Shown here piece by piece: positions 22,301 through 46,198 of a DNA stretch of 64,000 nt (the stretch's first letter is position 1; each line of letters starts with the position of its first letter). The position numbers were made by a program, and so were the translations under genes. The notes under the pieces were generated by a model. The model was not told the DNA's origin and did not search any database. It worked only from the letters and a program-made list of their open reading frames with translations. Source of the stretch: an uncultured Muribaculaceae bacterium (GTDB taxonomy: Bacteria > Bacillota_I > Bacilli_A > RF39 > UBA660); the NCBI GenBank assembly GCA_964549115.1, contig CAZJTX010000001.1, forward strand, positions 56,494 through 120,493, given 5' to 3'.

Positions 22301-22446
22301 ACTACCACAACTCCTACTATAATAATTTTAACACAAAACTAATTTATTTTCTTTAAAATTACATCTTTACTAAATATTTGTAAATCTTAGCAGTAATGAT
22401 GAATTTTACTTAAATATAATATATAATGATGATAGGTGATTTTAAG

Positions 22447-23169
22447 ATGAGATTAAAGAATAAAGTGGCGGTTATTACAGGCGGTACAAGTGGAATAGGA
22501 TTTGCTTGTGCTAAAGATTTTATAAAAGAAGGTGCAAAAGTAGTTATATCCGGATCAAGAGATCGCGGACCTGAGTTATTAAAAGAACTTGGACCTAATG
22601 CTAGGTTTGTAAAGTGTGACGTTAGTAACGAAGAAGATGTTAAAAACTTAATGAACAAAACAGTTGAAATGTTTGGCAAGTTAGATATATTAGTAGCTAA
22701 TGCTGGTATTGGAGATGCAGACCCACTTGCAGATGAACCAACTGAGACTTGGCATAAAATATTAGACATTAACTTGACCGGTGTATTTTTATCAAACAAA
22801 TATGCTATTAAAAAAATGATGGTTAACAAAAGTGGTTCCATTATTAATATGTCTTCCATATTAGGAATAGTTGGAAATCCAGTCGCTCCTGCATATTGCG
22901 CATGTAAAGCTGGAGTTATAAACCTAACCAGATCAGCTGCTCTAGCATATTCAAAAGATGGAATTAGAGTTAATGCAATATCTCCGGCGTATATTAAAAC
23001 TCCATTAATAGAGTCGATACCAGAAGAAGATTTAATTCCATTACATCCAATTGGAAGATTAGGATTTGATTACGAGGTAGCCAAGGCTGTAACCTTCCTA
23101 GCTAGCGAAGATGCATCTTTTATAACAGGTGTAACACTACCAGTTGATGGCGGATATACAGCTCAATAA
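22447..23169 (+). CDS. short-chain dehydrogenase/reductase (FabG-like)
   Basis: TGGTSGIG cofactor motif, NAG, and the YCACK catalytic Tyr-Lys. The start was taken at MRLKNKVAVITGG. GC content is visibly higher than the flanking DNA. Confidence 0.8.
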   Translation: MRLKNKVAVITGGTSGIGFACAKDFIKEGAKVVISGSRDRGPELLKELGPNARFVKCDVSNEEDVKNLMNKTVEMFGKLDILVANAGIGDADPLADEPTETWHKILDINLTGVFLSNKYAIKKMMVNKSGSIINMSSILGIVGNPVAPAYCACKAGVINLTRSAALAYSKDGIRVNAISPAYIKTPLIESIPEEDLIPLHPIGRLGFDYEVAKAVTFLASEDASFITGVTLPVDGGYTAQ

Positions 23170-23189
23170 CAAACACACGCCTTTACAAG

Positions 23190-23219
23190 CGGTTTACCAA
23201 TTCGTGTAAACCGTTTTTT
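23190..23219 (+). terminator. rho-independent terminator after SDR gene
   Basis: CGGTTTAC-CAATTCGT-GTAAACCG followed by TTTTTT. Confidence 0.65.
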
Positions 23220-23224
23220 AAATG

Positions 23225-23260
23225 CTTGTCAACTATAAGCGTTTCCTTTATAATATATTT
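23225..23260 (+). promoter_or_regulatory. sigma-A-type promoter
   Basis: TTGTCA, a 17 nt spacer, then TATAAT, upstream of the TasA-like gene at 23289. Confidence 0.4.
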
Positions 23261-23288
23261 ACAGGGTAAGTTATGTAAAGGAGTGGCT

Positions 23289-23900
23289 ATGAAAGGTAAA
23301 GGTAAGATTATTCTATTACTATTATCATTAACAATTACTATCGGCTTTATGAATAGTACCTATTCAAGATATGTTGCTGGTACTACTGGTAATGTTGAAG
23401 CTGACTTTGCTAAGTGGCAATTATTAGTAAACAATAATGATATTACTGATAATAATACTAACAGTATTAGTTTTACTCCTGTCATAGAACAAAGTGAACA
23501 TGTAAGAGATAATGTTATCGCCCCTTCTTCAAAAGGATACTTCGATATTGAAATAGACCCTACTAATGTAGATGTATCATTTAAATATAAATTAAGTTTA
23601 CAAATTGAAAATGAAGAAGTGCCAGATCTACTAATGAGTAAATACGCGGTGTTACCACTTGATTACGAAGAAGAAGACCCACTAACATTTATAAATATAA
23701 TGGATAACGAAATAGAGAACTCATTATATATGAACAACACAATAGAAAATTTCAAGTACGAAAAATTCACTATTAGAATATACTTTGAATGGTTTGACAA
23801 TGAAGAAACAGACCATACAGAAATAGGTTATTTAGCAGCTACTGAAGGTTATGAATTAGATATTAGTGCAGATATAACATTTGAACAAATATTCAATTAA
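23289..23900 (+). CDS. TasA/camelysin-like (peptidase M73 family-like) secreted protein with SipW-cognate signal
   Basis: The start at MKGKGKII is preceded by AAAGGAG. The TM helix ends NSTYSRYVAG. A beta-rich region (GYFDIEIDPTNVDVSFKYKLSL) parallels the TasA FxFxNxG segment. Confidence 0.5.
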   Translation: MKGKGKIILLLLSLTITIGFMNSTYSRYVAGTTGNVEADFAKWQLLVNNNDITDNNTNSISFTPVIEQSEHVRDNVIAPSSKGYFDIEIDPTNVDVSFKYKLSLQIENEEVPDLLMSKYAVLPLDYEEEDPLTFINIMDNEIENSLYMNNTIENFKYEKFTIRIYFEWFDNEETDHTEIGYLAATEGYELDISADITFEQIFN

Positions 23901-23928: not shown

Positions 23929-25152
23929 TTATAAGTTTATTTTTTCTACTGTAATAACTGGTACTATATTACATGATTCTAAATTATTCTTTTTATATAT
24001 AGCAGAGGTGTTCTCATCTTCTTTTTTTATGGCAAATGTTGAGGTAGTATCATATACTGTATTAGTCCAATAACAATTATTAGAAACTAAATACTCCGGT
24101 TTGTTATTAAAAGTAAATATAGAATTGTTTAATTTAGCTTTATTTATAATAGTATTTAATCTATCTCCATAATATATGTGACCTAAGATTTCGGGGGCTA
24201 TACCCGTAGTTATTATTTGAGTATTTACAACGTCTTTAGAAACAATAGTTAATAAATCACCCACTTCTAAGCCTTTATAAGGAACAGTCCAACTTGAAGC
24301 TAATAACTGCATATTAGAAGCATAATCTGTTTGATTTGATGTAACATACTGAGTTGAAGGGTCTAACATTAAATTAACCTCTAAATCCCCTTTTTTATTA
24401 TCTCCATCTATAACTCTAGTTTTATAACAATCATTACCCACACTTGAGCAAGCTTGATTTAATACTGGGTTAAATAACACCTTTTTCCCCATCGGATAAT
24501 CAAGATCTGATGATGTTGCATCTTTTATATGTTGTTCCGCTATTACGCTAATAACTATCTTTATAGATGGTTGAATTAGGTAATTAGGATCTTGTAGTTT
24601 TTTATTGGCTTCGCTTTTTTGAAAAGCATATGCTCCATTACCCCATAAACTGTCAGCTTCATCATCATTTGAATCTAATGGCCATGAAATTGATACTGTA
24701 AATGTACCTTCATCTCCGTGTGCTAATAAGTGGTTTTTACTAAAACTCATGTTAATATGAAAAGGATAATTATGAGATATAGAGTCCTCTATATAAAGAG
24801 TATTCGGATTAATTTCATCATATTCATAATAATCTTCTTCGTTTCCTAGAATTCTAGCTGATGTTACAATATATTTTAAACTAGCATCAGAATCCCCCAT
24901 GTTTTTTATTTCCATCTTTTCACTTACTAAATCCATACCTGGGTGAATGTCCGATAAGCTAATTTCTATTTGATTAGAGATTGCCTCCCCGTCTTTAGTT
25001 AATTCTATATACCATGCCTTAACATCTATCTCTGTAGTCATTGAAGATAATCCGCTGTAAGCAAACCACGCCAAAGTAACAGCCATAAAAGATGTGACTG
25101 CTAGTGCAACTGTTACTAAATTAGCTCTTATTATTTTTAGTTTCTTATTCAT
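23929..25152 (-). CDS. TasA/camelysin-like domain protein with long C-terminal extension and SipW-cognate signal
   Basis: 407 aa. Signal/anchor ending VTLAWFAYSG. MEIKNMGDSDASLKYIV aligns with TasA FQFENNGSLAIKEV. Immediately downstream of sipW, as in tapA-sipW-tasA. Confidence 0.55.
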   Translation of the reverse strand: MNKKLKIIRANLVTVALAVTSFMAVTLAWFAYSGLSSMTTEIDVKAWYIELTKDGEAISNQIEISLSDIHPGMDLVSEKMEIKNMGDSDASLKYIVTSARILGNEEDYYEYDEINPNTLYIEDSISHNYPFHINMSFSKNHLLAHGDEGTFTVSISWPLDSNDDEADSLWGNGAYAFQKSEANKKLQDPNYLIQPSIKIVISVIAEQHIKDATSSDLDYPMGKKVLFNPVLNQACSSVGNDCYKTRVIDGDNKKGDLEVNLMLDPSTQYVTSNQTDYASNMQLLASSWTVPYKGLEVGDLLTIVSKDVVNTQIITTGIAPEILGHIYYGDRLNTIINKAKLNNSIFTFNNKPEYLVSNNCYWTNTVYDTTSTFAIKKEDENTSAIYKKNNLESCNIVPVITVEKINL

Positions 25153-25169: not shown

Positions 25170-25721
25170 TTATACTGCGTTTCTCCTTTTTTCCTCTTTT
25201 GCTAACAATGACGTTAGTATTTGAGCTCCAACTATATAAAATGTCGGAATTATACAAAATAATAAAAATCCTATTTTATTACTTATTACTTTATATATAA
25301 ACGACAACACTACTGAACGATAAATTATCTTACCGTATAATTGATCTTCTGATATAATTGGGTCTTCAATTATATTGGCTAAACCTTTAGCTGAAAAATA
25401 ATATTTTCCATCTGAGGATTGCATTACGTTTGTAACTTCGTGAGTTACTACTTTTCCTTTAAAGCTACCCTCTTTACCTTGGTAACTAATCGGATCCCCA
25501 ATTTTTATTGATGAGGGCGGTACCTCTTTTGAGATTAACACATCTCCTACGTCATACTTAGGCATCATACTACCAGATATGACGGAAAACATTCGATATT
25601 TAAATATTGAAACCTGATTATTACTTATTCTTTGCAATAAAACTACTACTATAAACGCTAGTAGTAAAATAGTAACCACAACATTTAATATCTTTTTTGT
25701 TATTTTAAATGCTTTTTTCAT
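25170..25721 (-). CDS. sipW: signal peptidase I, archaeal/ER type (S26B), SipW-like
   Basis: 183 aa. N-terminal TM helix, the SGSMMP serine box, a VTHEV histidine box and a C-terminal TM helix. Good alignment to B. subtilis SipW. Confidence 0.8.
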   Translation of the reverse strand: MKKAFKITKKILNVVVTILLLAFIVVVLLQRISNNQVSIFKYRMFSVISGSMMPKYDVGDVLISKEVPPSSIKIGDPISYQGKEGSFKGKVVTHEVTNVMQSSDGKYYFSAKGLANIIEDPIISEDQLYGKIIYRSVVLSFIYKVISNKIGFLLFCIIPTFYIVGAQILTSLLAKEEKRRNAV

Positions 25722-26860
25722 TAAACGACTCCTTTTTTATTTTCTTTTAAGAACCTTTTCATTTCATCTTGGAATTGTTTTTTAATTTCTGTTTCTCCAG
25801 CAGTTCTCTTTATTTTCTCATTTTTAATTTCATCTGCAATCATTTTTATAATTTCGTCTTCACTTATATCATAACCACTATTTAGAAGAATCTCAATAAC
25901 TCTTCGTATTTGTTCCGTAATCATAACGATTCCATAATGATATAATTTTTCGTTTTGATCTCGTTTTCTACTTGAAATTGAATCTAAAACATAATAACTC
26001 ATTAAAAACGCATCGTCTAATATTCCACGCACCATTTCATTACCTGTTGTCTCTAACGATTGTTTACCTTGGGCATTTTCTTTAATCATGTCTTGATTTA
26101 ATAAAAATTGCCATAACTTACTTGCAATTTGGAAGTTGGGGTTTTTTAATATCATATTAGTTTTTCTAATTGGAGGAATAACAAATGGTACTCTTGCTTT
26201 TTCTAATGATGTAACAAATTCACTTCTTCTCCAGTTAGTTAAATAATCTTGAACAAATTTTATTCTAGATCTTATATCTTCAATTTCTTTTGCAAACTCC
26301 TCAGGGTTTTTATCTTTTGGTAATTCTCCAGAAGTAATTCTAAATTCTATATCTATTTTTTCAACATCTGTTTTAGCAGTAGATGAATATTCAAGATGTT
26401 TATGGTTTTTCATCTCAAAGTTATCTAACATTCTCTCTTTATCCAAGACAAATCTTAACATATGATCTATTAAAGTATATATAAATCTGTTTTCATATGT
26501 ATTATAAGTTTCTTCTCTTCTTTCAATTAATATCTTAGATGGTTGAACCTCCATAGTTTCTAAATCTATTTTATCGATAAAGTGAGTATTTTTAGCCAAG
26601 TTTTTAACACTTGCCACCCCTATTTTTTTGGCTTTTTCTATTGTTACTATGTCTTCTTCATTTATAAGCGCCATTCTAGGATTCTTTATAATGTTATCGA
26701 TATAAGGACAAGCAAACTCTAGTTCATCCAACCAATTTAAAGACATTGTATCACTGTCTACTTCCGACTTGTAATACATTGAAGAATCTACACTATCCAT
26801 GAATAGTGTAGCTTTTTCTTTTGCTAATTCTGTATTTTCAACATTAATCTTTTTAGCCAA
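25721..26860 (-). CDS. hypothetical cytoplasmic protein, partner of the AAA ATPase
   Basis: 379 aa. No TM helix and no recognisable catalytic motif. TAATG overlap with sipW. Follows the AAA gene by 12 nt. Confidence 0.35.
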   Translation of the reverse strand: MAKKINVENTELAKEKATLFMDSVDSSMYYKSEVDSDTMSLNWLDELEFACPYIDNIIKNPRMALINEEDIVTIEKAKKIGVASVKNLAKNTHFIDKIDLETMEVQPSKILIERREETYNTYENRFIYTLIDHMLRFVLDKERMLDNFEMKNHKHLEYSSTAKTDVEKIDIEFRITSGELPKDKNPEEFAKEIEDIRSRIKFVQDYLTNWRRSEFVTSLEKARVPFVIPPIRKTNMILKNPNFQIASKLWQFLLNQDMIKENAQGKQSLETTGNEMVRGILDDAFLMSYYVLDSISSRKRDQNEKLYHYGIVMITEQIRRVIEILLNSGYDISEDEIIKMIADEIKNEKIKRTAGETEIKKQFQDEMKRFLKENKKGVV

Positions 26861-26872: not shown

Positions 26873-28414
26873 CTAAATTGATTTTTTCAATCTTTCCAAA
26901 TAATCTATACACTCTATCATTGCTCCATTTCCGAATTCCTTATTTAAGTATGCAATAAATGGATCAACTTCATCTCTTATTAATGTAATATTTAATTGGT
27001 CAAATTTTCTTAAAATTTTCTTTGCTATAAAGTAATCTATAGCTTCTACTTCTTCTCCCCCACAAGCAACATACACTGGAACAAATGTATTTAATTGTTT
27101 CATAATTCTGTTACCAAAAGCTATTCTAAAATGTTTAATAACATAATCATCCATTGCTCTAACTTTATCTATATTTGATTCTGAAACTTTTATTTGTTCT
27201 TCTGCTTCTTTAAATAATCCTTCTAAATAACTAGAATTAATATCCATTGCTGCCTGTTCTCTACTCTTAAATGGATCAATTCTACTATTGATATCTATCG
27301 GCATAGCTCTATCATAAACTTTATCCGTAACCATGAAGGTCGAGTCGTCGTTGTTAATTGTTCCGATATACCATAGATTTTCCGGTAGTATTAATTTACC
27401 ATTTTCTATTCTTTTAGGGTCATCTGGCCAAGCACTACTTACTACTTCAATTACCCACTCACTTCTTGATGGCATTTCATATATAGATAACATCTCCGCA
27501 AAGTAATACTCAACTCTCGCAATGTTCATCTCGTCTAATATAATTGTGTGAACATCGTCGTTAAATCCAGCTTCGTATAATTCCGCTAAAACATCTGATT
27601 CGTTAAACTTTTTCGTAAATTCGTTAAAGTATCCTAATAATTCTGTTTTATCTCTCCAAGACGGTTCAACTGATGCTATACATGCATCAACGTTAACAAA
27701 CTTACCCCAAGCATATGCTAGAGAGGTTTTACCAGTACCAGATATACCTTGTAAGATAATTAACTTACCACAAGCTAAACCCGCCATAAATGGTCTTAAA
27801 ATACTATAATCATAATACAATCTTAATTGACTAGCAGCGAATGCTCTAAAGTTGTCGGTTAATTCTTTTAAATTAAAATTATTACCATAATTTTTAACTT
27901 TATATCCTTTGTATTCTTCGTCTAATTTTGTAAGTTTAGTAAATCTAACATTAGCTAAATCTATTTCGCCTTCTTCTAATTCTTCTCCATCTTCAGTCAA
28001 CTGAACTTCTTCGTCATCAGGAGATAATCCTAGTTGCGAAACTTTCATTGCCATGATCTCATCTTTTTCTTTCATAAGTTTTTTAACTTGATGATTTAAA
28101 TCTCCGATTTCATTTAAAAGTTCTTCTTGATTATATTTTCCTCTTCCAAATTGAATGTATCTTTTAATACCCCAAAAGATTAACCAAAAAGTTAATCCTA
28201 CCATAGCAACTAAAACTAAAACAGTTAAACCCACTAATATCCATTCAACAGTTGTAAAACTTGTATTGTATGAGTTAAATACTTTTTGATAGTTCGTAAA
28301 CTTAAACATTTTAGCAAAGCCCGAACCTATTCCTTTAAATATAGTTATAACTCCATCAAAGAATATTGAGATAAACTCATAAAAGAATCTTACAAATGTG
28401 TGCATATTAATCAC
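26873..28414 (-). CDS. membrane-anchored AAA+ ATPase of the McrB/AAA_5 type
   Basis: 513 aa. One or two N-terminal TM helices followed by a coiled coil. Walker A GISGTGKTS, LDEMNIAR (DEiNRa-like) and NLWYIGTINNDDST…DRA (McrB-like). Confidence 0.55.
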   Translation of the reverse strand: MINMHTFVRFFYEFISIFFDGVITIFKGIGSGFAKMFKFTNYQKVFNSYNTSFTTVEWILVGLTVLVLVAMVGLTFWLIFWGIKRYIQFGRGKYNQEELLNEIGDLNHQVKKLMKEKDEIMAMKVSQLGLSPDDEEVQLTEDGEELEEGEIDLANVRFTKLTKLDEEYKGYKVKNYGNNFNLKELTDNFRAFAASQLRLYYDYSILRPFMAGLACGKLIILQGISGTGKTSLAYAWGKFVNVDACIASVEPSWRDKTELLGYFNEFTKKFNESDVLAELYEAGFNDDVHTIILDEMNIARVEYYFAEMLSIYEMPSRSEWVIEVVSSAWPDDPKRIENGKLILPENLWYIGTINNDDSTFMVTDKVYDRAMPIDINSRIDPFKSREQAAMDINSSYLEGLFKEAEEQIKVSESNIDKVRAMDDYVIKHFRIAFGNRIMKQLNTFVPVYVACGGEEVEAIDYFIAKKILRKFDQLNITLIRDEVDPFIAYLNKEFGNGAMIECIDYLERLKKSI

Positions 28415-37938: not shown

Positions 37939-39576
37939 TTATTCTGTTTTTTGAGTCTTTAATATTTTATTAGTTTCAGTTACAAACCAAATTTGTTCAA
38001 CATCGATTTTACTTTCTTCTATTATTTTTATTCTAAGCAGTAAATCCAGTTTCTCTAAAAGTAAATCAATGTCGCCTTCTTCAAAGTCCTCTTCTGTAAC
38101 ATTTATGTTTTCTAATCTATATTTATTAACTATAGTACTTTTCAAGTTATTATCTTCAAATACTAAAGCTCCTTTTGTAACAATGTTTGTTGTTTCTTTA
38201 GCGTAAGCATCAAAGTTATCGCTAATTTTCATTAAATCAGAATATGTTTCTAGGTCCATTAATTTTTTAATTACATCTTTTTTATAATAAGAATGGCTAT
38301 GATAAAAGTTCATTAATTCCGAAATAGTTAGAGCCTTGTTTAACATTGATAATACATTTATTGTGAAAAACTCATTATCTTCCTTTATATATAGATCATA
38401 TGTTAAATTAGCTAACTTATTAGACTCAATTTTTAATTGTTTTACTTCATAATTAGTCTTATTATCATTTAAGATTGTATCTTTTTTAAATATAGTATTG
38501 TTAATCTTTGCTAATTTACGTTCGTTCTTTTTAATGTCTTTGTTAATCTCTTTAATCTTTTTTAAATGTAAATTAACTCTTTTTTTGTCTCCAATTTGTT
38601 CTAGTTCTTTTATATATTCTTGTTTAAAATTATTTACAATAGGTAAAAAAGTCATATAATTCTTTAACTCAACTACATTTGTTCTTAGTTTTTCTACTGA
38701 AGAATAAAACTTTTCCAATTTTTGTTTATCATCCATATCCAATGCTTCGATGGATAGTGTTGTATATGCTGAAGTTCGGTTTTTACTTTCTTCAAAGAAA
38801 CTATTAACATCAGCTTCTCCGCTTTTAGCTAAATCAATTATGTCCCAAATAGTTTCGTTTTGAGTTAATAACAGTTCTCTTGAAGCTTCTTTTAGTTTAT
38901 CAATACATTCTTGATAAGTTTTAATCTTTTCAGCTTGCATAGACTTTGTTTGTTTATCTTTGATATAAGCATCAAACTTTTTGGCATTATCTTTTACTAA
39001 TTTTCTAAAAGTTAATTCTATGTGTTTTACTATTTCTGGGTTTAACCAGTATATTTGTTCAAACACTTTATTTAATTTAGTGAAATTCTTTTCTTCTTGG
39101 GATCTTTCTTTTAAGAACGCTTTCATGTAATCATGTACATATGAGGTTAACTTAAAGTCCGATGACACTAATTTAATATCAACTTTTTCAAATATTACTA
39201 ATAAGTCTTCTAATATTCGATTAAGTGATTTAAATTCAAAATCAGTATAATTGCTTAACTCATAGAATAAATTATCAAAATTTAATTTTTCGTAATATGT
39301 ATTACTTGGGTTAAGTAACATTTTTAATTCTTCAAGTTTTTTAACCTTTTCAATTAATTCTTCATTTTTACGAGATTCTTTTTTAGATAGTATTTTTTTA
39401 GTTTTAGCTTCTAAATATCTTTTTACTTGATCTTCATATTCTTCGTATTTAGCATGTATTTCATCTATCTTTTTATTTTTATTCTTTTTATTAGTTTTCG
39501 TTCTAACAGGAAGAGATGTTATTAAGGTGGTTTTAGCAGCTATATCTTCTTCTATAAACTCTAAAAAATTACTCAT
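37939..39576 (-). CDS. cytoplasmic coiled-coil protein
   Basis: 545 aa. No TM helix or signal peptide. K/E-rich heptad-like segments. Embedded between surface-protein paralogs. Confidence 0.4.
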   Translation of the reverse strand: MSNFLEFIEEDIAAKTTLITSLPVRTKTNKKNKNKKIDEIHAKYEEYEDQVKRYLEAKTKKILSKKESRKNEELIEKVKKLEELKMLLNPSNTYYEKLNFDNLFYELSNYTDFEFKSLNRILEDLLVIFEKVDIKLVSSDFKLTSYVHDYMKAFLKERSQEEKNFTKLNKVFEQIYWLNPEIVKHIELTFRKLVKDNAKKFDAYIKDKQTKSMQAEKIKTYQECIDKLKEASRELLLTQNETIWDIIDLAKSGEADVNSFFEESKNRTSAYTTLSIEALDMDDKQKLEKFYSSVEKLRTNVVELKNYMTFLPIVNNFKQEYIKELEQIGDKKRVNLHLKKIKEINKDIKKNERKLAKINNTIFKKDTILNDNKTNYEVKQLKIESNKLANLTYDLYIKEDNEFFTINVLSMLNKALTISELMNFYHSHSYYKKDVIKKLMDLETYSDLMKISDNFDAYAKETTNIVTKGALVFEDNNLKSTIVNKYRLENINVTEEDFEEGDIDLLLEKLDLLLRIKIIEESKIDVEQIWFVTETNKILKTQKTE

Positions 39577-39707
39577 GATTCTTCCTCTTCTATTTTAGAA
39601 TCTTCTAATGTTTTAATAAATTCAACAATGTCATTATATAGTTTAATTAAGTCAGTTAAACTTAATACTGACATGTCATAATCAACTTTTTTTACTTCCT
39701 TTTTCAT
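39573..39707 (-). CDS. small ORF (44 aa) translationally coupled to the coiled-coil gene
   Basis: MKKEVKKVDYDMSVLSLTDLIKLYNDIVEFIKTLEDSKIEEEES. RBS GGTGGA lies 5 nt upstream. Its TGA stop overlaps the ATG of the downstream gene (ATGA). It is below the ORF-track length cutoff. Confidence 0.4.
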   Translation of the reverse strand: MKKEVKKVDYDMSVLSLTDLIKLYNDIVEFIKTLEDSKIEEEES

Positions 39708-39801: not shown

Positions 39802-41319
39802 TTAACTTACAATAACTGTTCTATAAACTCTAACAGCTCTGTTTCCTGCCCAGTCACTTACATCATAAGCTACGTAATATGTTCCTGCTTTAGATGTATC
39901 TACCGGATTTATAACTTGGATTCTATATGTTATGTCACCGTCAACATCATCTTCTGCTGTTGCGCCCGCATCAATATAGTCATCATTTAAATCAACGTTT
40001 ACTGTTTCTTCGCCTTCTAGTGTTATAACTGGTTTTGTTGTGTCTTCAACTTCTGGACGAGGTCCCTCATAACCGAAGTCGTCTCCAGTCATTCTTTGTT
40101 TTGTAAATCCAAATTGAACTGATATTCTTTTACCGATAAATGATAAATCATAGTTATCAATATCTTGACCTTCTAAGAAAACATATACTCTTACTTTAGT
40201 AATACTATTTGGAGCAAGTGTCATGAAAGCTGGTCTATTAACACTTTGTAAATCTCTATGTGTGTCTGTGAAATATGGATATGCTTTTAATTTATTATTT
40301 GTTATTGCTTCCATGTGTCCGTTATAAGCTTCACCATCATAAACGTTTACATGATCTGATACTGTTATAACATCTTGTACAGCATATGTTGGATAAGCTG
40401 CATCTTCTTCAATTAATCCACATGCGTTTTCCGAATATGAATCTTCATCATATACATCTATATCTGGAGTTTCGTCTACTCTTTCTCTACAGTTTGTTTC
40501 ATAATAATTGATTGCGCTTACAACGTGCTTTGTATCATTTGGTTCCCAAATTTGTGCATCTCTACAAATTCCGGTTATTCCATTATCAACATCAGGTTGT
40601 CCACCGTCTCCCACATTACATGTGATTCCGGTAATTTTATCTTGATCAGTTTCGGTTCCGATAACTCTTCCGATTTGAGCAAATGCTACTCTAATTGCGT
40701 TTTCAATGCCTGTATCTTCTTCTCCAGCTTCTGCTACTTCAACTTTTGAACCTGCACCTGCTTCAACGCCTTCATCTCTGTCTGTAATTAGATAAATTGC
40801 TTCTTCGTCTAAAAGATCTCTATCTTCAATATAAGCTGTTGATCCAGTATTTTTCACAAATAAATCAAACGCCACATAACCGGCTTGTTCCGTTTGGCTT
40901 TGTTCGTGGTTATTTACTCGACTACTAATTAATCTAAATCCACCTGGTCCTGTTGCTGGTACTGGTGTATGACTTGCTTTTTCAAACAATTTTAGTCTTG
41001 AAGCTTCTAAGTCAATTTCACCTACTGACGACATTGGAATTAAACCATGTGTTCCGCCCCAACTATTAGTGTTACCTTCATATGAATCTATATTAAAATT
41101 ATCTTCATTTATAGTAACTGTTGTGTCCCATTTCCTTCCATCTAATGATAGCATCAGGCCATCTACAACTGCTACTTCAATATCGAATGAAGTTACAGTA
41201 ACTGTTTGCATTCCTATAAACCATGCAAATGTTGCCACTAATAAGACAATTGCACTTAGTGCACTTATACCTACTAGATTTCTTACACGATTATCGTGTC
41301 TTTGATTTTTCTTGTTCAT
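39802..41319 (-). CDS. paralog B of the FAWFIGMQ/WLEGQD family with DUF5011 domain
   Basis: 505 aa. The N-terminal 80 aa are about 80% identical to paralog A. Same motif set. C-terminus PVITLEG…GTYYVAYDVSDWAGN. Confidence 0.6.
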   Translation of the reverse strand: MNKKNQRHDNRVRNLVGISALSAIVLLVATFAWFIGMQTVTVTSFDIEVAVVDGLMLSLDGRKWDTTVTINEDNFNIDSYEGNTNSWGGTHGLIPMSSVGEIDLEASRLKLFEKASHTPVPATGPGGFRLISSRVNNHEQSQTEQAGYVAFDLFVKNTGSTAYIEDRDLLDEEAIYLITDRDEGVEAGAGSKVEVAEAGEEDTGIENAIRVAFAQIGRVIGTETDQDKITGITCNVGDGGQPDVDNGITGICRDAQIWEPNDTKHVVSAINYYETNCRERVDETPDIDVYDEDSYSENACGLIEEDAAYPTYAVQDVITVSDHVNVYDGEAYNGHMEAITNNKLKAYPYFTDTHRDLQSVNRPAFMTLAPNSITKVRVYVFLEGQDIDNYDLSFIGKRISVQFGFTKQRMTGDDFGYEGPRPEVEDTTKPVITLEGEETVNVDLNDDYIDAGATAEDDVDGDITYRIQVINPVDTSKAGTYYVAYDVSDWAGNRAVRVYRTVIVS

Positions 41320-41374: not shown

Positions 41375-41402
41375 AGTTTATCACATTACCATTTTTTGTC
41401 AA
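41375..41402 (-). promoter_or_regulatory. sigma-A-type promoter of paralog B
   Basis: On the minus strand: TTGACA, a 16 nt spacer, then TAAACT. It is embedded in the same TTTGTCAATAaTAaTTGAC element found upstream of paralog A. Confidence 0.35.
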
Positions 41403-41430: not shown

Positions 41431-42450
41431 TTAAAAATCTATATACCCCGCTAAGTCTTTTAATAAATCTATAGCAAGGAATATTGGTGCCCCCTCTGAG
41501 TTTGTTTCCAAACTATCTATATCTTGACCTTCTAACCAAACATAAATTCTCATTTTAGTAATTCCATTTGGTATTTGAAATATTGGATCAATGAATTGAG
41601 ATTCCATTATTGTTTCTTGAAATTGGAAATGTTCAGTATCTAAAGGTATTCCCGATCCTTCATGACCATTGGCATACTCTAGTCTTCTACCTTCTTTTAT
41701 AATAGCGTATGTGGGTGATATTTCTCCATCTACTAATGTAACACCATAATCTGTATAAGCTCTTTCTATTGAAAGCGGTGAATGTTTTATTTTATTTGGT
41801 TCATATATAACTGCCGCACAATCATTATTACATTTCAAGTTTTGAATATTTCTTATTTCATCATTTGATGAAGTGCTTCCTATTTTTAAAAATCCGAACC
41901 TTATAGAGTTAATAATACCATCCATCTCTATTCTTGATTCTTCATCCACGTCATCACCAAAATCTATATATGTTCCCTCATCTATATATAAGTTGTCGCT
42001 TTTAGGTGAACCACTCACATTTTTTAAAAATATATCAAATGCTAAATATGATTTATATAAATTAGATGAGTCCTCTGGCATATGAGCAGTATTTAAGAAA
42101 CGGTAAAGTTTCCTATCTTTATCTCTTGCTTTAACTAATGTTCCTTCATATATTTCAAACTTATCTTGGTTGGGATGCTTTATCCCTATTGTAGATATTG
42201 GCCACAGTCCTTTAGCAGCCCATTGATTAGTGTTCGTTGGGTATCTTGTTTTTAAATTATCTATAATTGATTTTGAAGTAATTTCGACCGAATCTGAAAA
42301 ATCGATTCCGTCTAAAGAAATAAATAAACCACTATTACTAGATACGTTCATTTCAAAGAATTTAATTTTAACATTCAAAGAAACAGAAAACCATGCATAA
42401 GTAACAAAGATTAGAAGCACTGTTGTTAAAAACAGTAGTGCTAAAACCAT
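41431..42450 (-). CDS. paralog C (short, no DUF5011) of the same family
   Basis: 339 aa. Contains FVTYAWFSVS, GLWPISTIGI, SYLAFDIFLKN, INSIRFGFLKIG and KMRIYVWLEGQDIDSLE. The ATG at 42450 has no SD. A non-canonical ATA start at 42504, 5 nt after AGGAG, would add a basic N-terminus as in the other paralogs. Confidence 0.5.
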   Translation of the reverse strand: MVLALLFLTTVLLIFVTYAWFSVSLNVKIKFFEMNVSSNSGLFISLDGIDFSDSVEITSKSIIDNLKTRYPTNTNQWAAKGLWPISTIGIKHPNQDKFEIYEGTLVKARDKDRKLYRFLNTAHMPEDSSNLYKSYLAFDIFLKNVSGSPKSDNLYIDEGTYIDFGDDVDEESRIEMDGIINSIRFGFLKIGSTSSNDEIRNIQNLKCNNDCAAVIYEPNKIKHSPLSIERAYTDYGVTLVDGEISPTYAIIKEGRRLEYANGHEGSGIPLDTEHFQFQETIMESQFIDPIFQIPNGITKMRIYVWLEGQDIDSLETNSEGAPIFLAIDLLKDLAGYIDF

Positions 42451-42512: not shown

Positions 42513-43955
42513 CTAATCTTCTACTATGACTGTTCTAATAACTTCTTCTGCCCAGTTACCTGCCCAGTCTCTTACGTTGTATCTAACTACATATGTACCC
42601 TCTACATTTGTATTTACATGGTTTTGAACAACAATATGTTCAGTTATATCTCCTTCTAAATTATCATCTGCCGTTGCACCTTCATCTGTATATGTCGAAC
42701 CAGTTGCTATACGTACAATCGGGTCTCCTATTAATGTAATTACAGGAGGAGTAACGTCTCTTGCTGGTGCTATATCTGGACCATCATAATCGAAGTCTTC
42801 CTCGGTTAAACGATCTTTGGTAAATCCAAAATGAACTGATATCCTTTTACCTATTGCAGCATAATCATAATTGTCAATATCTTGACCCTCTATATAAATA
42901 TATACCCTTACTTTAGTAATACTATTTGGTGCAAGTGTCATAAATGTTGGTCTTCTAACACCAGGCATATCTCTGTTTGTATCTGTAAAATATGGATATT
43001 TCATAACTTTAGGACTTGGAGCATAACTGTTATATTCTTGACCATCGTATATATCAACATTATCTGATGACATTAATTCTTGTCTTATAGCATATGTCGG
43101 ATAATATGTTTCATCTTCTAATTGGTGACACTTATCTGATGAATATGCTGTTGGCATATGTATTTGGGTTCCTACCCTTCTTCTACATGTTGCATCATAA
43201 AATTTAATTGCGTTTTCAACATGATATATATCATTTGGTTCCCAAATTTGACCTATTCTACAAATTCCTGTAATGCCGTCCTTAATTGAAGGAACTCCAA
43301 CATCATTCGCGTTACATGTTATTGATGTAATTAACTCTTGATCTGTTACAGCTGCTGATACTCTTCCGATTTGAGCAAAAGCTACTCTTACTGAATTTTC
43401 TATACCAGTATTTGCTATACCAGTCTCGGCAACATTAACTTCTGATTCAATAGATAAGTATATTGCTTCTTCATTTAATACATCGTCTATTTCAAAATAT
43501 TTTGGTCCCGAGAAATTTTTAATAAATAAGTCAAACGCTACATAACCGTCCGCTTCGGCTTCACCAGTATTGTGAACTCTACTTGCCATAATTCTATGTC
43601 CACCCGAAGTAGCTGTAAAACTAGATTTTTCAAAAAATACTAGCCTTGATGAATTAACATCAACTTCACCAATAGTAGACATTGGTATAAGTCCTCTTCC
43701 ACCCCACCTATTCGTATGTCCTGGATAAGACACTTCATCTACTGTTTCTTTAGTTATGCTCACAGTTGTGTTCCATTTTTTACCATCAAGTGACAATAAC
43801 AAACTATCCGTTGCAGCTATTTCAATATCAAATGATGTCACACTAACTATTTGCATTCCTATAAACCAAGCAAATGTTGTTACAAGCAATAATATAGCTG
43901 TTATTGTTGTAACTGTTATTAATTTCTTTAATCTTTTCGTATCTTTTTTAGTCAT
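42513..43955 (-). CDS. paralog D with DUF5011 domain
   Basis: 480 aa. Contains TTFAWFIGMQ, GYVAFDLFIKN, KVRVYIYIEGQDIDNYD and PVITLIG…GTYVVRYNVRDWAGN. Confidence 0.6.
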   Translation of the reverse strand: MTKKDTKRLKKLITVTTITAILLLVTTFAWFIGMQIVSVTSFDIEIAATDSLLLSLDGKKWNTTVSITKETVDEVSYPGHTNRWGGRGLIPMSTIGEVDVNSSRLVFFEKSSFTATSGGHRIMASRVHNTGEAEADGYVAFDLFIKNFSGPKYFEIDDVLNEEAIYLSIESEVNVAETGIANTGIENSVRVAFAQIGRVSAAVTDQELITSITCNANDVGVPSIKDGITGICRIGQIWEPNDIYHVENAIKFYDATCRRRVGTQIHMPTAYSSDKCHQLEDETYYPTYAIRQELMSSDNVDIYDGQEYNSYAPSPKVMKYPYFTDTNRDMPGVRRPTFMTLAPNSITKVRVYIYIEGQDIDNYDYAAIGKRISVHFGFTKDRLTEEDFDYDGPDIAPARDVTPPVITLIGDPIVRIATGSTYTDEGATADDNLEGDITEHIVVQNHVNTNVEGTYVVRYNVRDWAGNWAEEVIRTVIVED

Positions 43956-43965
43956 TTGCTATCTC

Positions 43966-45405
43966 CTATTCAACTATTACAGTTCTAGTAACTTCATCTG
44001 CCCAGTTACCTGCCCAGTCTCTTACGTTATATCTAACTATATATGTTCCTGTTTCCGCAGTGTTGACAGGATTATTTACAACTATATAAGGAGTTATATC
44101 TCCGTCTATATTATCACTTGCTGTTGCACCTAAGTCGTCATATGTTGATCCTTGATTAATAGTTATTTCATCTAAACCATTTAATAATATAATTGGTTTA
44201 ATTGTATCTCTTAGAGGTTCTAAATTCGGTCCTTCGTATCCAATATCGTCTTCAGTAAATCTTTGTTTTGTAAATCCGAATTTAACTGATAATTTTCTTC
44301 CTATTGAAGCATAATCATAATTATCTACATCTTGACCTTCTAAATATACATATACTCTTACTTTAGTAATACTATTTGGAGCCAAATACATAATAGGTAG
44401 TCTTTCAACACCTTCTAATTCTTTATCTGTATCTGTAAAATAAGGAACGCTAAATAACTTAGTACTACCCTCATATGTATTATATGCTGGTCCATCGTAT
44501 ATATTTACATAATCACTTGATGCAATAGGTTCACTAACTACATATGTTGGGTACGCTACTCCATCAACTATAGGATTACAAGTTCCACCATAAGATTCTG
44601 GTAATCTTGAATTTCCTCCAGTTCTTTTTAAACAATGAGTATCATACCAATCTATAGCTCCCGCCACGTGCTTAGTATCATTTGGTTCCCAAATTGATGC
44701 AGCTCTACATATTCCTGTTACTCCATCAACTATACTAGGTTTACCTTCTCCATCTGGATTACATGATATAGAAGCAATTTTTTCTTGATCTAATTCTGTA
44801 CCTATAACTCTTCCGATTTGAGCAAAAGCTACACGTACCGAATTTTCTAGTCCTGTATCTTCAACTCCACCATCTATAGCAACTTCTACAGATGAATCAA
44901 CAGATAAATAAATTCCTTCTTCATCTAATAAATTATATTCTGGAGTATAAGCACTTCCTGTCATATTTCTAACAAACAAGTCAAATACTACATAACCATC
45001 TGCTTCTTTGTCTCCTGTATTTTCTACTCTACTTGCCATTAAACTATGGCCACCAGGTATAGCAGTTATTCCTGCCTTTTCAAAAAGCATTAATCTAGAT
45101 GTATTCACATCAATTTGTCCAATTGTTGACATCGGTTCTAATCCGCCGCCTGACCACCAATTAGTATGATTTGGATATGATACATTTTCTAAATTTTCTC
45201 GGTTAATACTTACCGTAGTATCCCAGCTCACTCCATCTAGTGATAATAATAAGTTTTCAGCTGCTGCAATATCAATATCAAATGATGATACCATTACTGA
45301 TTGCATTCCAATAAACCAACCAAATGCAGTAAAGATTAATACTACCGCACTTAAAGCCATTAGAATCAACTGACGTCTTATTTTAATTGTACTTTCTTTC
45401 TTCAT
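43966..45405 (-). CDS. paralog E with DUF5011 domain
   Basis: 479 aa. Contains TAFGWFIGMQ, GYVVFDLFVRN, KVRVYVYLEGQDVDNYD and PIILLNG…GTYIVRYNVRDWAGN. Confidence 0.6.
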   Translation of the reverse strand: MKKESTIKIRRQLILMALSAVVLIFTAFGWFIGMQSVMVSSFDIDIAAAENLLLSLDGVSWDTTVSINRENLENVSYPNHTNWWSGGGLEPMSTIGQIDVNTSRLMLFEKAGITAIPGGHSLMASRVENTGDKEADGYVVFDLFVRNMTGSAYTPEYNLLDEEGIYLSVDSSVEVAIDGGVEDTGLENSVRVAFAQIGRVIGTELDQEKIASISCNPDGEGKPSIVDGVTGICRAASIWEPNDTKHVAGAIDWYDTHCLKRTGGNSRLPESYGGTCNPIVDGVAYPTYVVSEPIASSDYVNIYDGPAYNTYEGSTKLFSVPYFTDTDKELEGVERLPIMYLAPNSITKVRVYVYLEGQDVDNYDYASIGRKLSVKFGFTKQRFTEDDIGYEGPNLEPLRDTIKPIILLNGLDEITINQGSTYDDLGATASDNIDGDITPYIVVNNPVNTAETGTYIVRYNVRDWAGNWADEVTRTVIVE

Positions 45406-45414
45406 TTGTCCTCC

Positions 45415-46110
45415 TTATTTTTCAATTAACTCTGAGTTAAATTGCATACTTATTTTAATATGTCCCCCAATTAAATTATCTGTGCAATCTGGGTCTCTAC
45501 CTTCTAACCAGATTACAACTGTATATTTATCTATATCTCCTGGTGAAAAATGTTTTACTTGCTCCATCATTACCCAATCATCTTTTTTAAAAGGTTCAGT
45601 TTCAGGCTCTGGCCTTCCGTTTCTTCCCATTTTTGCAAATGTTGTTTCTTCACCATTTCTAAATATTTTTATTCTTATTGCTTCGTCCACATTTTTTATA
45701 ACATTTTCTATATTAACCTCATACCAATAGTCTGAAACGTTTTCTCCGGTATTTTCAACAAAAAATGTATAAGAAACATAATTGTCTCCATTATTAGATC
45801 CACCTTCGTGTTCTTCTAAACCAGGTGGCAACCATTTACCAGACATATTATCAAATGATTCTAATGATTCAGCAAATAATTCAGAGCGGTATACTTTATA
45901 AGTCGGATCATCGTATATGATGATTCCCTTTTCATAATATAGATTTCTATCTAACATAATCGTAAAACCCCAGCTGGTGTATAAAACACTAATAACTAGA
46001 TACAAAATAAAAAGCAAAAACAAAACGCCAACGACTACCCACTTAAGTCGTTTTCGTCTTTTTCGCTTCTTGTTTACAGCAATGGCTTTTTCACGAATGT
46101 CTTTATCCAT
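45415..46110 (-). CDS. paralog F (most divergent and shortest) of the same family
   Basis: 231 aa. Basic N-terminus, a TM helix ending TSWGFTIML, and a C-terminal VVIWLEGRDPDCTDN…KISMQFNSE matching the family end-block. Confidence 0.45.
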   Translation of the reverse strand: MDKDIREKAIAVNKKRKRRKRLKWVVVGVLFLLFILYLVISVLYTSWGFTIMLDRNLYYEKGIIIYDDPTYKVYRSELFAESLESFDNMSGKWLPPGLEEHEGGSNNGDNYVSYTFFVENTGENVSDYWYEVNIENVIKNVDEAIRIKIFRNGEETTFAKMGRNGRPEPETEPFKKDDWVMMEQVKHFSPGDIDKYTVVIWLEGRDPDCTDNLIGGHIKISMQFNSELIEK

Positions 46111-46198
46111 ATCTTTCCCTTTACTATACTCTACTCTTATAATAATTTTATCACAGGATTGCGTATTGTCAATTATTTCAATAAAAAAGACTAGTTTT

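Follow-up and report, generated by a model that had tools for sequence, protein, structure and literature searches.

A conserved signal peptidase block with a membrane-anchored McrB-like NTPase in uncultured Bacilli, a candidate surface-polymer system

Introduction

What is the function of a gene block in which archaeal-type signal peptidases stand beside about 11 dedicated secreted proteins and a membrane GTPase that appears to come from a restriction enzyme? The combination has been named in the literature (Bell et al., eLife 2024) and, judging from the few sentences given to it there, never studied. One such block was analyzed here in a DNA stretch of 64,000 nucleotides (the window). An earlier note had proposed a SipW-centred system with cognate secreted proteins, and had treated an McrB-like ATPase and its coupled partner as integral parts of it. 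S26B profile scores and a common anchor motif support the first proposal; the second is supported by 79 of 83 loci, in which the pair lies between the two active peptidases. Three results had been named that would speak against this view; instead, no phage or ICE annotations were obtained, the peptidases are of the S26B type and the cleavage-region motif is common to the secreted proteins.

Results

Gene content and transcription signals

The block covers ~23 kb (23289-46172) and contains 19 conserved protein genes. Two of its products are predicted active SipW-type (S26B) peptidases, and a third is a SipW paralog predicted to be catalytically dead. Eleven genes encode N-anchored, non-peptidase secreted proteins. 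The inventory also includes a membrane-anchored McrB-like NTPase adjoining a nuclease-less McrC (DUF2357) partner, one coiled-coil protein and one ORF of 44 aa. The association of signal peptidases, NTPase and secreted proteins is a genuine gene system.

The ORFs of the earlier note were all recovered at the same positions, and all genes but one (s203, 23289-23900) indeed lie on the minus strand. The conserved 44 aa ORF at 39573-39707 was missing from its list. Instead of many overlapping stop and start codons, overlap was found in two to three gene pairs only, the other gaps measuring 2-139 nt. Gene-neighbourhood comparison across loci showed that the SDR gene is not a member of the system.

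The paralog genes have a GC content of 0.33-0.37 and the surroundings of the SDR gene one of 0.34, whereas the gene for the 1208 aa protein lies at 0.21-0.26, against a background of ~0.27. The contrast between GC-rich and AT-rich genes in the proposed island is real, but the implied acquisition of foreign DNA is not borne out: at least 80 related species share the gene order, and the block was not found in viral and plasmid collections. The four transcription-signal sites previously named were all recovered by the signal scanner, together with a further promoter-like site at 46172-46145, although the number of promoter-like sites as a class was not above shuffled expectation.

30494-30519, minus strand: terminator-like hairpin (9 bp stem and T run) between the genes for SipW3 (dead paralog) and SipW-fusion
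36273-36288, minus strand: terminator-like hairpin 3' of par505a
37898-37925, minus strand: promoter-like site TTGACA-16-TG-TAAAAT, upstream of par505a
41375-41402, minus strand: promoter-like site TTGACA-16-TG-TAAACT, upstream of par505b
46145-46172, minus strand: promoter-like site TTGACA-16-TG-TAAAAT, upstream of par231

Signal peptidases

25170-25721, minus strand: SipW1, S26B signal peptidase of the archaeal/ER type, predicted active, membrane helices at both termini
28407-30434, minus strand: SipW-fusion, S26B domain (residues ~20-172), acidic linker and conserved cytoplasmic domain (~310-675)
30518-31045, minus strand: SipW3, pseudo-peptidase (SipW paralog, predicted catalytically dead) that shares the two-helix topology

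SipW1 and SipW-fusion matched TIGR02228 (archaeal-type signal peptidase I) with 78.6 and 66.8 bits, respectively, above the cut-off of 51.85, as expected from their earlier description as a canonical sipW and a SipW domain with a tail of ~500 aa. SGSMxP and TH are kept in 41 SipW1 orthologs, and GSM and THR are conserved in SipW-fusion. The tail of the latter is predicted to lie inside the cell because a basic stretch comes after helix 2. It gave no match in Pfam or in the PDB, which leaves its designation as a "signalling-like extension" without any domain or structural counterpart.

SipW3 reached only 17 bits against TIGR02228. Its family aligned with the SipW1 family (hhalign probability 98.5%, E 2.9e-15), but Asn stands in place of the catalytic Ser and Gly in place of the catalytic His, so that the SGSM serine and the TH histidine are both lost. 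Thus, the earlier reading of a third SipW-like copy with a degenerate Ser box was correct. This paralog is conserved in 65 loci. With S26B membership defined by a profile score above the cut-off and by the catalytic Ser/His, the proteins at 25170-25721 and 28407-30434 belong and that at 30518-31045 does not. The eukaryotic signal peptidase complex contains a catalytic S26B subunit (Sec11) and a non-catalytic subunit of related fold, which the active and dead SipW paralogs resemble. We know of no Spc1/Spc2 counterparts at the locus, and a complex of the bacterial paralogs is suggested by analogy only.

Secreted proteins and their common anchor motif

23289-23900, plus strand: s203, small secreted jelly-roll family member, anchor end T-Y-S-R-Y
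23929-25152, minus strand: s407, secreted, anchor end T-L-A-W-F
31104-32000, minus strand: s298, secreted, anchor end T-F-S-R-Y
32003-32557, minus strand: s184, small secreted jelly-roll protein, anchor end T-Y-S-Y-F
32561-36187, minus strand: secreted protein of 1208 aa, anchor end T-A-A-R-F, very AT-rich

The motif [TS]-x-[AS]-x-[FY] was found at the anchor end in nine of the 11 non-peptidase N-anchored proteins of the locus, compared with 1/11 N-anchored proteins elsewhere in the window. It is conserved among orthologs in 7 of 8 families. Its position is that of the TasA cut site, T-W-A↓A-F, confirmed from PDB 8aur, in which the chain starts at A28. Among the NCBIfam matches at E<=0.1 there was no cognate-SipW-type model.

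Four of these proteins form a small jelly-roll family. Orthologs of s203 occupy the same divergent position in 66 loci, and s203 is related to the s184 family (hhalign 96.8%). The N-terminal ~210 aa of s407 are homologous to s203 (hhalign 90.7%, and 86% to s184), while its C-terminal ~200 aa occur only in close relatives, the orthologs of distant loci having ~200-230 aa. s298, found in 60 loci, is related to s184 over its N-terminal ~90 aa (hhalign 96.0%). s184 has two invariant cysteines, and the segment past its cleavage site is predicted by the model to be disordered. The jelly-roll model with this segment resembles donor-strand fibres (BsaA model, PMC11580942), a likeness that would bear only indirectly on strand exchange.

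These four proteins had been described as TasA/camelysin-like. The SipW-type cleavage region was recovered in them, but the family match was not. s184 scored 13.5 bits against Pfam Peptidase_M73 (cut-off 22.5), and 4 of 28 of its orthologs matched (best E 3.7e-4), over the signal region and first strands only. The s203 family had no Peptidase_M73 match, and hhalign against TasA gave probabilities of 3%, 1% and 0.1% only. Membership of the TasA/camelysin (Peptidase_M73) family was not supported, as curated thresholds were not reached and the similarity stayed sub-threshold.

The 1208 aa protein occurs only in loci arranged as in the window, with orthologs of 1130-1232 aa in 24 loci. It had no Pfam match, and GLUG was found neither at E<=0.01 nor at E<=10, so that the "GLUG adhesin" is without HMM support. 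Inspection by eye showed GGI(V/A)G-like motifs in this protein, a lead only.

Paralog family and coiled-coil protein

36327-37844, minus strand: par505a, long paralog, novel core and C-terminal Ig-like domain, anchor end T-F-A-W-F
37939-39576, minus strand: cc545, cytoplasmic, heptad-rich stretches, probably coiled-coil
39573-39707, minus strand: acidic 44 aa ORF, 4 nt overlap with the cc545 start
39802-41319, minus strand: par505b, long paralog, anchor end T-F-A-W-F
41431-42450, minus strand: par339, core-only paralog without Ig domain, anchor end T-Y-A-W-F
42513-43955, minus strand: par480, long paralog, anchor end T-F-A-W-F
43966-45405, minus strand: par479, long paralog, variant T-A-F-G-W-F
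45415-46110, minus strand: par231, membrane-anchored, without cleavage motif, first gene of the paralog operon

The six paralogs of an unrecognised family reported earlier resolved into four long paralogs, 49-57% identical to each other, par339, ~28% identical to them, and the remote relative par231. The par339 type is the form present in the most distant loci. For par231 the relationship covers the C-terminal portion of the core (hhalign 89.9% with the long paralogs, 84.3% with par339), and the cleavage motif is missing in 29 of its 30 orthologs. Across the family the mature N-terminus is conserved and the C-terminal display domains are variable.

The main paralog core (~350 aa) had no match in Pfam or the PDB. 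When the AF2 model of par479 (pLDDT 84.6) was compared with the PDB, the Ig-like domain alone matched. S-layer matches were confined to generic Ig-like domains. In this monomer model the first strand past the cleavage site is packed into the core, which neither supports nor excludes strand donation. As the core found no structural relative, its polymerisation is hypothetical. In domain searches cc545 displayed no known domain. Its orthologs, detected in 31 loci, always lie beside the paralog block, and the 44 aa ORF is kept directly upstream of them in at least 17 loci.

McrB-like NTPase and McrC-like partner

25721-26860, minus strand: McrC-like partner, DUF2357 N-domain only, 379 aa, 1 nt overlap with the SipW1 start
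26873-28405, minus strand: McrB-like AAA+ NTPase, 510 aa from the ATG at 28405 (the ORF reaches a GTG at 28414)

Database homologs of the NTPase begin at the ATG. A conserved N-terminal hydrophobic segment is followed by a predicted membrane helix (~57-82), a heptad region (~93-124) and the NTPase domain, with the motifs GISGTGKTS and LDEMN and an invariant N-N-D-D. The profile matches E. coli McrB (PDB, E 2.3e-6), and the partner scored 39.9 bits against Pfam DUF2357 (cut-off 23.3), in line with the earlier proposal of a membrane-anchored McrB/AAA_5-like ATPase with a partner. The pair has tight junctions, with an overlap of 1 nt and a gap of 12 nt. A Deinococcus plasmid encodes an 800 aa AAA protein, a coiled-coil McrB homolog itself paired with a DUF2357 protein, that shares 35% identity (E 2e-55) with the NTPase domain. 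A partial PADLOC match to the defence candidate PDC-M26A (E 1.9e-37) reflects the defence ancestry of the domain.

A McrBC type IV restriction system was considered and rejected. The N-terminal 200 aa of the NTPase consist of hydrophobic segments, the heptad region and an acidic linker, with no DNA-binding specificity domain. Among 71 aligned orthologs of the partner there was no conserved PD-(D/E)xK (D...ExK) pattern, and no nuclease family matched.

Bell et al. (eLife 2024) named a class, CoCoPALM, in about three sentences and deferred its analysis to later work. The locus appears to match this class and fits four of the features stated there, although the earlier note had been unable to map it to a described locus. 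The first feature is an McrB-like GTPase of the NxD branch, whose signature is, according to these authors, usually followed by D or E. In addition to the McrB match, the N-H-D-E of the Deinococcus protein aligns ungapped with the invariant N-N-D-D; the latter is readable as NxxD too, because HMMER aligns it ungapped to the N-T-A-D of E. coli. The second feature, fusion of the GTPase to an FtsB-like transmembrane segment and coiled coil, is matched in architecture, with sub-threshold similarity to Pfam DivIC (FtsB/DivIC family) in 5 of 23 members (best E 0.018). The adjoining DUF2357 McrC homolog is present, directly downstream in 79 loci, as are signal-peptidase-family genes: two TIGR02228 matches flank the pair, and the dead paralog is nearby. 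The coiled coil is "usually" found in the CoCoPALM McrC homolog as well; here a crude heptad scan, which gave false positives on the sortase, flagged residues 187-216 only.

Distribution and conservation

The NTPase was found in at least 578 species-level genomes, all of them uncultured Bacilli/"Tenericutes" MAGs, and the block is common to hundreds of uncultured low-GC Bacilli from gut and environment. In a comparison of 80 loci, SipW-fusion, GTPase, McrC and SipW followed one another in this order with hardly any exception; the McrC-like gene directly follows the GTPase gene in 79 of 83 loci. The paralog block switches sides as one unit while the remaining gene order stays. The module recurs as a unit in related genomes, a point for which the earlier note had suggested a neighbourhood comparison. 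The NTPase is the best conserved part (median identity 60%), with identities of 56-75%. Its presence in so many species, its conservation and the kept gene order indicate that the parts form one system. Chromosomal neighbourhoods of the block vary between genomes, and no full-length NTPase relatives were found in plasmids, phages or IMG/VR. The block is not mobile or phage-borne.

Discussion

Proposed function

We consider GTPase-coupled processing and assembly of a surface polymer, by a CoCoPALM-type system, to be the likeliest function, and hold this with moderate confidence. Four closely linked genes make up the core of the locus: SipW-fusion, the McrB-like NTPase, the McrC homolog without nuclease, and SipW. 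Dedicated cargo comes in two families, four small jelly-roll proteins and a multi-copy family whose novel core often bears a C-terminal Ig-like domain. A surface or structural role is suggested by the shared cleavage motif, the jelly-roll model with its disordered N-terminal segment, the conserved mature N-terminus of the paralogs, the variable C-terminal domains and the separate paralog promoters.

In the mechanism that we propose, Sec would export the proteins, which would be held in the membrane by their anchors. Both active S26B peptidases, possibly complexed with the dead paralog, would then cut after the small residue, and the freed, conserved N-terminal segment would let subunits join as a polymer on the cell surface. 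Bulk subunits may be supplied by the multi-copy paralogs, which have individual promoters; minor, tip or base parts may be formed by the 1208 aa protein together with the four small ones, and the uncleaved par231 may anchor the polymer in the membrane. At the cytoplasmic face, a membrane-tethered McrB-type hexamer with its McrC-like activator would be in contact with the long SipW-fusion tail and with the coiled-coil protein, linking processing and assembly, in their timing or energetics, to NTP hydrolysis. As the nuclease is gone, the pair would be a restriction motor that has been exapted, rather than a restriction system.

The secreted proteins might alternatively form a two-dimensional S-layer-like coat or separate membrane-anchored adhesins, with no filament, the peptidases and NTPase acting only as a dedicated secretion or quality-control unit. 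The Ig-like domains, GC-richer genes and own promoters of the paralogs do suggest abundant coat proteins, and the evidence for polymerisation is indirect. We nevertheless find this explanation rather unlikely: the near-invariant cleavage motif and conserved mature N-terminus resemble those of the fibre subunits TasA and BsaA, the presence of four distinct, conserved small subunits is more suggestive of an ordered assembly in which they are minor or tip components, and the S-layer matches do not extend beyond generic Ig-like domains.

An anti-phage or abortive-infection system at the membrane that belongs to the CoCoNuT/McrBC lineage, with the secreted proteins and peptidases as effectors or decoys (e.g. 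shedding or masking of phage receptors), seems improbable. It would agree with the ancestry of the NTPase and McrC pair, and several divergent surface paralogs with variable C-terminal domains would fit a cell-surface arms race. However, the block is widespread in one lineage (at least 578 species), where its genes keep their order in varied chromosomal neighbourhoods; NTPase identity is high, unlike that of typical patchy defence genes; and domain searches detected no nuclease, HEPN or other toxin domain in any gene.

It is very improbable that an enlarged tapA-sipW-tasA-type matrix operon received an unrelated McrBC-type defence module by chance, leaving the pair independent of the secreted proteins. 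In its favour, genes related to McrBC usually serve in defence, the NTPase domain matches PDC-M26A and its nearest plasmid relatives are CoCoNuT-like pairs. Against it, 79 of 83 loci have the pair between the two active peptidases; its junctions overlap or nearly abut, it is better conserved than the rest of the block, its McrC-like member has no nuclease, the NTPase bears a membrane anchor in place of a nucleic-acid-binding domain, and no full-length relatives were found in plasmids, phages or IMG/VR.

Comparison with known systems

GTPase-coupled assembly of a surface polymer would be analogous to type IV pili and type II secretion, which also combine a peptidase, a membrane-side cytoplasmic NTPase, a multi-copy major subunit family and several minor subunits. 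There is, however, no homology to PilB/PilC/PilD or type IV pilins; cleavage would take place on the outer face and remove the helix, and the NTPase is an McrB-type AAA+ protein and not a PilB-type ATPase. Archaeal bundling pili (AbpA) and other donor-strand-exchange filaments share the archaeal-type signal peptidase, but are described as assembling without an NTPase, and the match was no better than to many unrelated jelly-rolls.

Like the matrix-fibre operons tapA-sipW-tasA of Bacillus subtilis and sipW-bsaA-bsaB-bsaC of Clostridium perfringens, the locus encodes a dedicated S26B peptidase together with its substrates, which have a T-x-A↓x-F type cleavage region and include a small subunit modelled as a jelly-roll with a disordered N-terminal segment. 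A sortase B gene is nearby both here and at the bsa operon. Unlike these systems, the locus has three peptidase paralogs instead of one, of which one is predicted dead and one has a 500 aa tail, as well as an NTPase and activator pair and ~11 secreted proteins in two families. There is no significant sequence or fold match to TasA, and the major paralog core has no counterpart in the PDB.

With McrBC and CoCoNuT systems the locus shares a homologous NTPase domain (the 35% identity being to a CoCoNuT-like plasmid protein), a homologous McrC N-terminal activator domain and the same two-gene order. It differs from them in lacking a PD-(D/E)xK or HEPN nuclease and a nucleic-acid-binding domain, in a membrane-anchored NTPase located among secretion genes, and in a gene order conserved across one lineage where McrBC/CoCoNuT are patchy.

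Finally, the cargo families, the dead and the long-tailed peptidases, the coiled-coil protein with the 44 aa ORF and the lineage distribution seem to go beyond the brief description of CoCoPALM by Bell et al. (2024). What the locus appears to share with that class is the McrB-like NTPase with an N-x-D-[D/E] signature, fused to a membrane helix and coiled coil, the adjoining DUF2357 (McrC N-domain) protein and the signal-peptidase-family genes.

Gene content of the locus

The earlier note had proposed a SipW-centred surface-fibre system, and this observation is confirmed, the system being both real and large. In outline the interpretation was also right, with the exception of three labels (GLUG, signalling-like and TasA/camelysin-like), which fail or stay weak. 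In the window, where GC content is low (about 27%), the genes between the SDR gene and ylxM are tightly spaced and, but for one, all on the minus strand. The tight packing described earlier was found, but the many overlapping stop and start codons were not: true overlap is limited to two or three gene pairs, the remaining gaps being 2 to 139 nt. Scanning all 20 ORFs against Pfam, NCBIfam and PADLOC gave no match for most of them.

Genes of the locus (window coordinates, strand, product)
23289-23900, plus, small secreted protein s203
23929-25152, minus, secreted protein s407
25170-25721, minus, signal peptidase SipW1
25721-26860, minus, DUF2357 protein (McrC-like partner)
26873-28405, minus, AAA+ protein (McrB-like NTPase)
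28407-30434, minus, SipW domain with a tail of about 500 aa (SipW-fusion)
30518-31045, minus, SipW3
31104-32000, minus, secreted protein s298
32003-32557, minus, small secreted protein s184
32561-36187, minus, 1208 aa protein
36327-37844, minus, long paralog par505a
37939-39576, minus, cc545, 545 aa with heptad-rich stretches
39573-39707, minus, 44 aa ORF
39802-41319, minus, long paralog par505b
41431-42450, minus, core-only paralog par339
42513-43955, minus, long paralog par480
43966-45405, minus, long paralog par479
45415-46110, minus, anchored relative par231

The 1208 aa gene, reported as a GLUG-repeat adhesin, does encode a secreted protein, but a relaxed Pfam scan detected no GLUG match. 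Such scans also left cc545, par231, s407 and s298 without any domain. The 44 aa ORF is acidic (MKKEVKKVDYDMSVLSLTDLIKLYNDIVEFIKTLEDSKIEEEES) and overlaps the start of cc545 by 4 nt; in at least 17 related loci, an ORF related to it (motif DFDLS-L-L-ELI) stands immediately upstream of the cc545 ortholog. Neither Rfam nor tRNA scans had a match within the locus. Upstream of it, eight tRNA genes form three groups (10519-10931, 12433-12509 and 15808-15966, minus strand).

Active and inactive signal peptidases

SipW1 (78.6 bits) and SipW-fusion (66.8 bits) both scored above the curated cut-off (51.85 bits) of TIGR02228, the archaeal-type signal peptidase I model, and the Ser and Thr-His boxes are kept in the orthologs of both. 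SipW3 reached only 17 bits. Its family profile nevertheless aligned with that of SipW1 over 145 columns (98.5% probability), with N- and C-terminal membrane helices in common. In this alignment Asn stands opposite the catalytic Ser and Gly opposite the catalytic His, in agreement with the degenerate Ser box noted before. SipW3 is therefore, as judged from the alignment, a conserved dead SipW paralog.

The tail of SipW-fusion should be cytoplasmic, since it comes after a second membrane helix and a basic stretch. Its conserved part (approximately residues 310 to 675) matched nothing in Pfam or among PDB sequences; thus, the description of this extension as signalling-like is unsupported.

Secreted proteins and the common cleavage motif

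The motif [TS]-x-[AS]-x-[FY] was found at the end of the anchor in 9 of the 11 non-peptidase N-anchored proteins of the locus, versus 1 of 11 anchored proteins elsewhere in the window, which bears out the shared SipW-cognate cleavage region. Orthologs retain it in seven of eight families, and it is near-invariant, as T-Y-A-W-F, in 112 diverse members of the paralog family. We checked the TasA sequence directly against PDB 8aur: the chain starts at A28, so TasA is cleaved at T-W-A|A-F, the same pattern as the motif of the locus. Outside the locus, the N-terminal anchor of a 550 aa protein (5458-7110, minus strand) ends in S-Y-A-Y-F, and this protein may be a further substrate of SipW-type peptidases. 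It carries a glycine-rich ALK_LTK_GRD domain (Pfam E 6.2e-34), also present in one distant member of the paralog family.

Profile comparisons sorted the secreted proteins into two families. One (86-97% probability) groups s184 and s203 with the N-terminal half of s407 and the N-terminus of s298. In the other, par339 joins the long paralogs at 100%, and par231 is a remote member that matches the C-terminal part of the core at about 90%. The motif is absent from 29 of 30 par231 orthologs, and par231 probably remains membrane-anchored.

The cleavage motif is what stands of the TasA/camelysin-like designation; family similarity was sub-threshold only. Four of 28 members of the s184 family matched Peptidase_M73 (best E 3.7e-4; 13.5 bits for s184 of the window, cut-off 22.5) and four of 28 matched TapA (best E 0.023), all below threshold and spanning the signal region and first strands. 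Beyond these weak signals, family members had no match in relaxed Pfam and NCBIfam scans, and hhalign produced no significant alignment of three families to TasA. As modelled by AlphaFold2 (pLDDT 70.7), s184 is a jelly-roll in which the 27 residues past the predicted cleavage site are disordered. We consider the small secreted proteins weakly TasA-like.

Searched against PDB sequences, the profiles of the paralog, s203 and s184 families returned Ig-like-domain matches or noise and no more. No Pfam model covers the paralog core in 112 distant members, and the core family is small, with 709 representatives at E<=1e-3 among 1.84 billion. The C-terminal domains of its members vary (Ig-like, InlK_D3, DUF6273, glycine-rich, F5/8 type C).

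A membrane-anchored McrB-like NTPase with a partner lacking the nuclease

The AAA+ protein had been described as a membrane-anchored McrB/AAA_5-like ATPase with a coupled partner, and it proved to be one. It has a Walker A motif (GISGTGKTS), a Walker B motif (LDEMN) and an invariant N-N-D-D; its profile matched E. coli McrB structures (E 2.3e-6) and its core matched the PADLOC candidate PDC-M26A. The neighboring protein matches DUF2357, the N-terminal activator domain of McrC. It is only 379 aa long, carries no conserved nuclease motif, and has lost the nuclease. The closest plasmid relatives of the NTPase cover the NTPase domain only. One of them is an 800 aa Deinococcus AAA protein, encoded next to a DUF2357 protein of 705 aa that follows it; it shares 35% identity with the NTPase of the locus, whose N-N-D-D aligns with N-H-D-E in the Deinococcus protein.

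The N-terminus of the NTPase comprises a highly conserved hydrophobic segment, a membrane helix that anchors the protein, and a heptad region; matches to DivIC/FtsB were sub-threshold. Residues 4-32, F-x-R-F-F-Y-E-F-x-S ... G, are invariant in 23 orthologs. Because conservation of this extreme N-terminus exceeds the need of a plain membrane anchor, it points to a specific contact within or at the membrane. An exact-sequence look-up of the NTPase from its GTG start gave no match, database entries using an ATG three codons later. In one related genome (locus L022, about 4400-5940) the NTPase is present as two consecutive ORFs; a frameshift, decay to a pseudogene or an assembly error might account for this.

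Distribution and gene order

More than 8000 homologs of the NTPase were found in the database, the nearest being 67-75% identical. Those with a taxon name, about a quarter of the matches listed, come from 'Bacilli bacterium' or 'Mollicutes bacterium' MAGs, except one labelled Ignavibacteriales. A scan of one genome per species showed that at least 578 species encode the NTPase, and the best 80 of these are without exception genomes of uncultured organisms, from gut, rumen, digester or environmental sources. The relatives appear to belong to RF39/RFN20-like orders. The genomes are apparently small: two related contigs, complete or near-complete, measure 1.49 and 1.55 Mb.

In 83 related loci the order SipW3, small proteins, SipW-fusion, NTPase, McrC homolog, SipW1, s407 and divergent s203 is near-invariant. 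The block of par231, paralog(s), par339, 44 aa ORF and cc545 is downstream of s203 in some loci and upstream in others, the window among them. It shifts as a unit while the remainder stays fixed, as would be expected if all of it were one functional system. By a wide margin, the NTPase is the best conserved part (median identity between orthologs 60%, versus 26-47% for all others), and flanking genes vary from genome to genome. The weakest rival explanation, a defence module inserted by chance, has this synteny against it.

The two arrangements separate L001-L038 from L039-L083. In loci resembling the window, the 1208 aa gene is present, with the paralog block upstream. Among the more distant loci, many have no 1208 aa gene, carry an extra short SipW-like and an extra s203-like gene upstream, and have par231, par339 and cc545 on the downstream side of s203; the s407 orthologs of these loci measure only about 200-230 aa.

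A prophage or ICE reading was rejected: no relative was found in IMG/VR, phage records gave only two partial matches, and plasmid matches were domain-only. Sortase B and the SDR gene were also rejected as parts of the system, being near it in 1 and 4 of the 83 loci, respectively. The class B sortase (19904-21460, plus strand; TIGR03064, 160 bits) has an unexplained N-terminal extension of about 270 aa. The adjoining 176 aa protein (19234-19764, minus strand) ends in KPTQTG, a hydrophobic stretch and basic residues, which looks like a sorting signal. Between the sortase and SDR genes, a 277 aa membrane-anchored protein (21467-22300, minus strand) has no family match, and no ortholog in any related locus.

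Transcription signals and base composition

All four promoter or terminator sites proposed earlier were recovered as candidates, together with a similar site upstream of par231. The promoter-like sites are candidates only, because such matches are, as a class, no commoner than in shuffled sequence.

Candidate transcription signals (window coordinates, strand, type)
30519-30494, minus, terminator-like hairpin (9 bp and T run) in the 83 nt gap between SipW3 and SipW-fusion
36288-36273, minus, terminator-like hairpin
37925-37898, minus, promoter-like site, TTGACA-16-TG-extended -10
41402-41375, minus, promoter-like site, TTGACA-16-TG-extended -10
46172-46145, minus, similar promoter-like site upstream of par231

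The hairpin at 30494-30519 lies inside what is otherwise one apparent operon. It could be an attenuator setting the ratio of the upstream structural genes to the peptidase/NTPase core.

The GC contrasts within the locus are real, but their reading as a sign of foreign origin is not retained, since the gene order of the block is conserved across at least 80 related species. They more probably reflect amino-acid composition and expression level.

Proposed function and comparison with known systems

After Sec export, the S26B peptidases would cut the secreted proteins after a small residue, and the multi-copy paralogs would assemble into a surface polymer. The small jelly-roll proteins and the 1208 aa protein would be minor parts of this polymer, and par231 its membrane anchor. 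NTP hydrolysis might be coupled to assembly via the cytoplasmic tail of SipW-fusion, cc545 and the 44 aa protein. We tentatively propose, as a possibility to which we give somewhat less than an even chance, that an McrB-type NTPase and its McrC-type activator, taken from a restriction enzyme by exaptation, now serve as cytoplasmic engine or gate in a Gram-positive surface-filament machine of a new kind. ER/archaeal-type signal peptidases would serve as its pilin peptidase, its major subunit would have a fold absent from PDB and Pfam, and it would be the signature organelle of a large uncultured lineage of reduced-genome Bacilli from guts and digesters. The same parts might instead form a surface coat in place of a filament, or the system might have a role in defence.

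If the filament function is true, none of the sortase pili, type IV pili, curli or plain TasA-type fibres is a counterpart of this surface-assembly pathway, which would clearly exemplify the recruitment of a defence-type NTPase to cell-envelope biogenesis. Hundreds of uncultured species, common in metagenomes of gut, rumen and digesters, keep the locus of about 23 kb in apparently small genomes; therefore, it is likely to be central to the attachment or interaction of these organisms.

The earlier note could not map the system to a described locus, but a named class fits it. In the NxD branch of McrB GTPases, Bell et al. (eLife 2024, PMC11090510) mention 'another large clade', which they call CoCoPALM and whose analysis they defer to a later paper. 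The locus shows the main features that they state (an McrB-like NTPase with a membrane helix and a heptad region, an adjacent DUF2357 protein and signal-peptidase genes), and the assignment is by these features. The supplementary files of that paper have no CoCoPALM entries, and our literature search found no follow-up on CoCoPALM and none on SipW in RF39-like lineages. The locus is thus a new, well-resolved member of a named but uncharacterised class. Its interest is high because the class is experimentally uncharacterised and the major subunit has no known fold. The parts list, cleavage motif, dead paralog and two arrangements make this class, named in the literature without analysis, directly testable. 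For the secreted part, the nearest experimentally studied analogue is the sipW-bsaA-bsaB-bsaC operon of C. perfringens, which has a SipW-type peptidase and a dispensable adjoining srtB; its subunits have a disordered loop at the N-terminus and build donor-strand fibres (PMC11580942).
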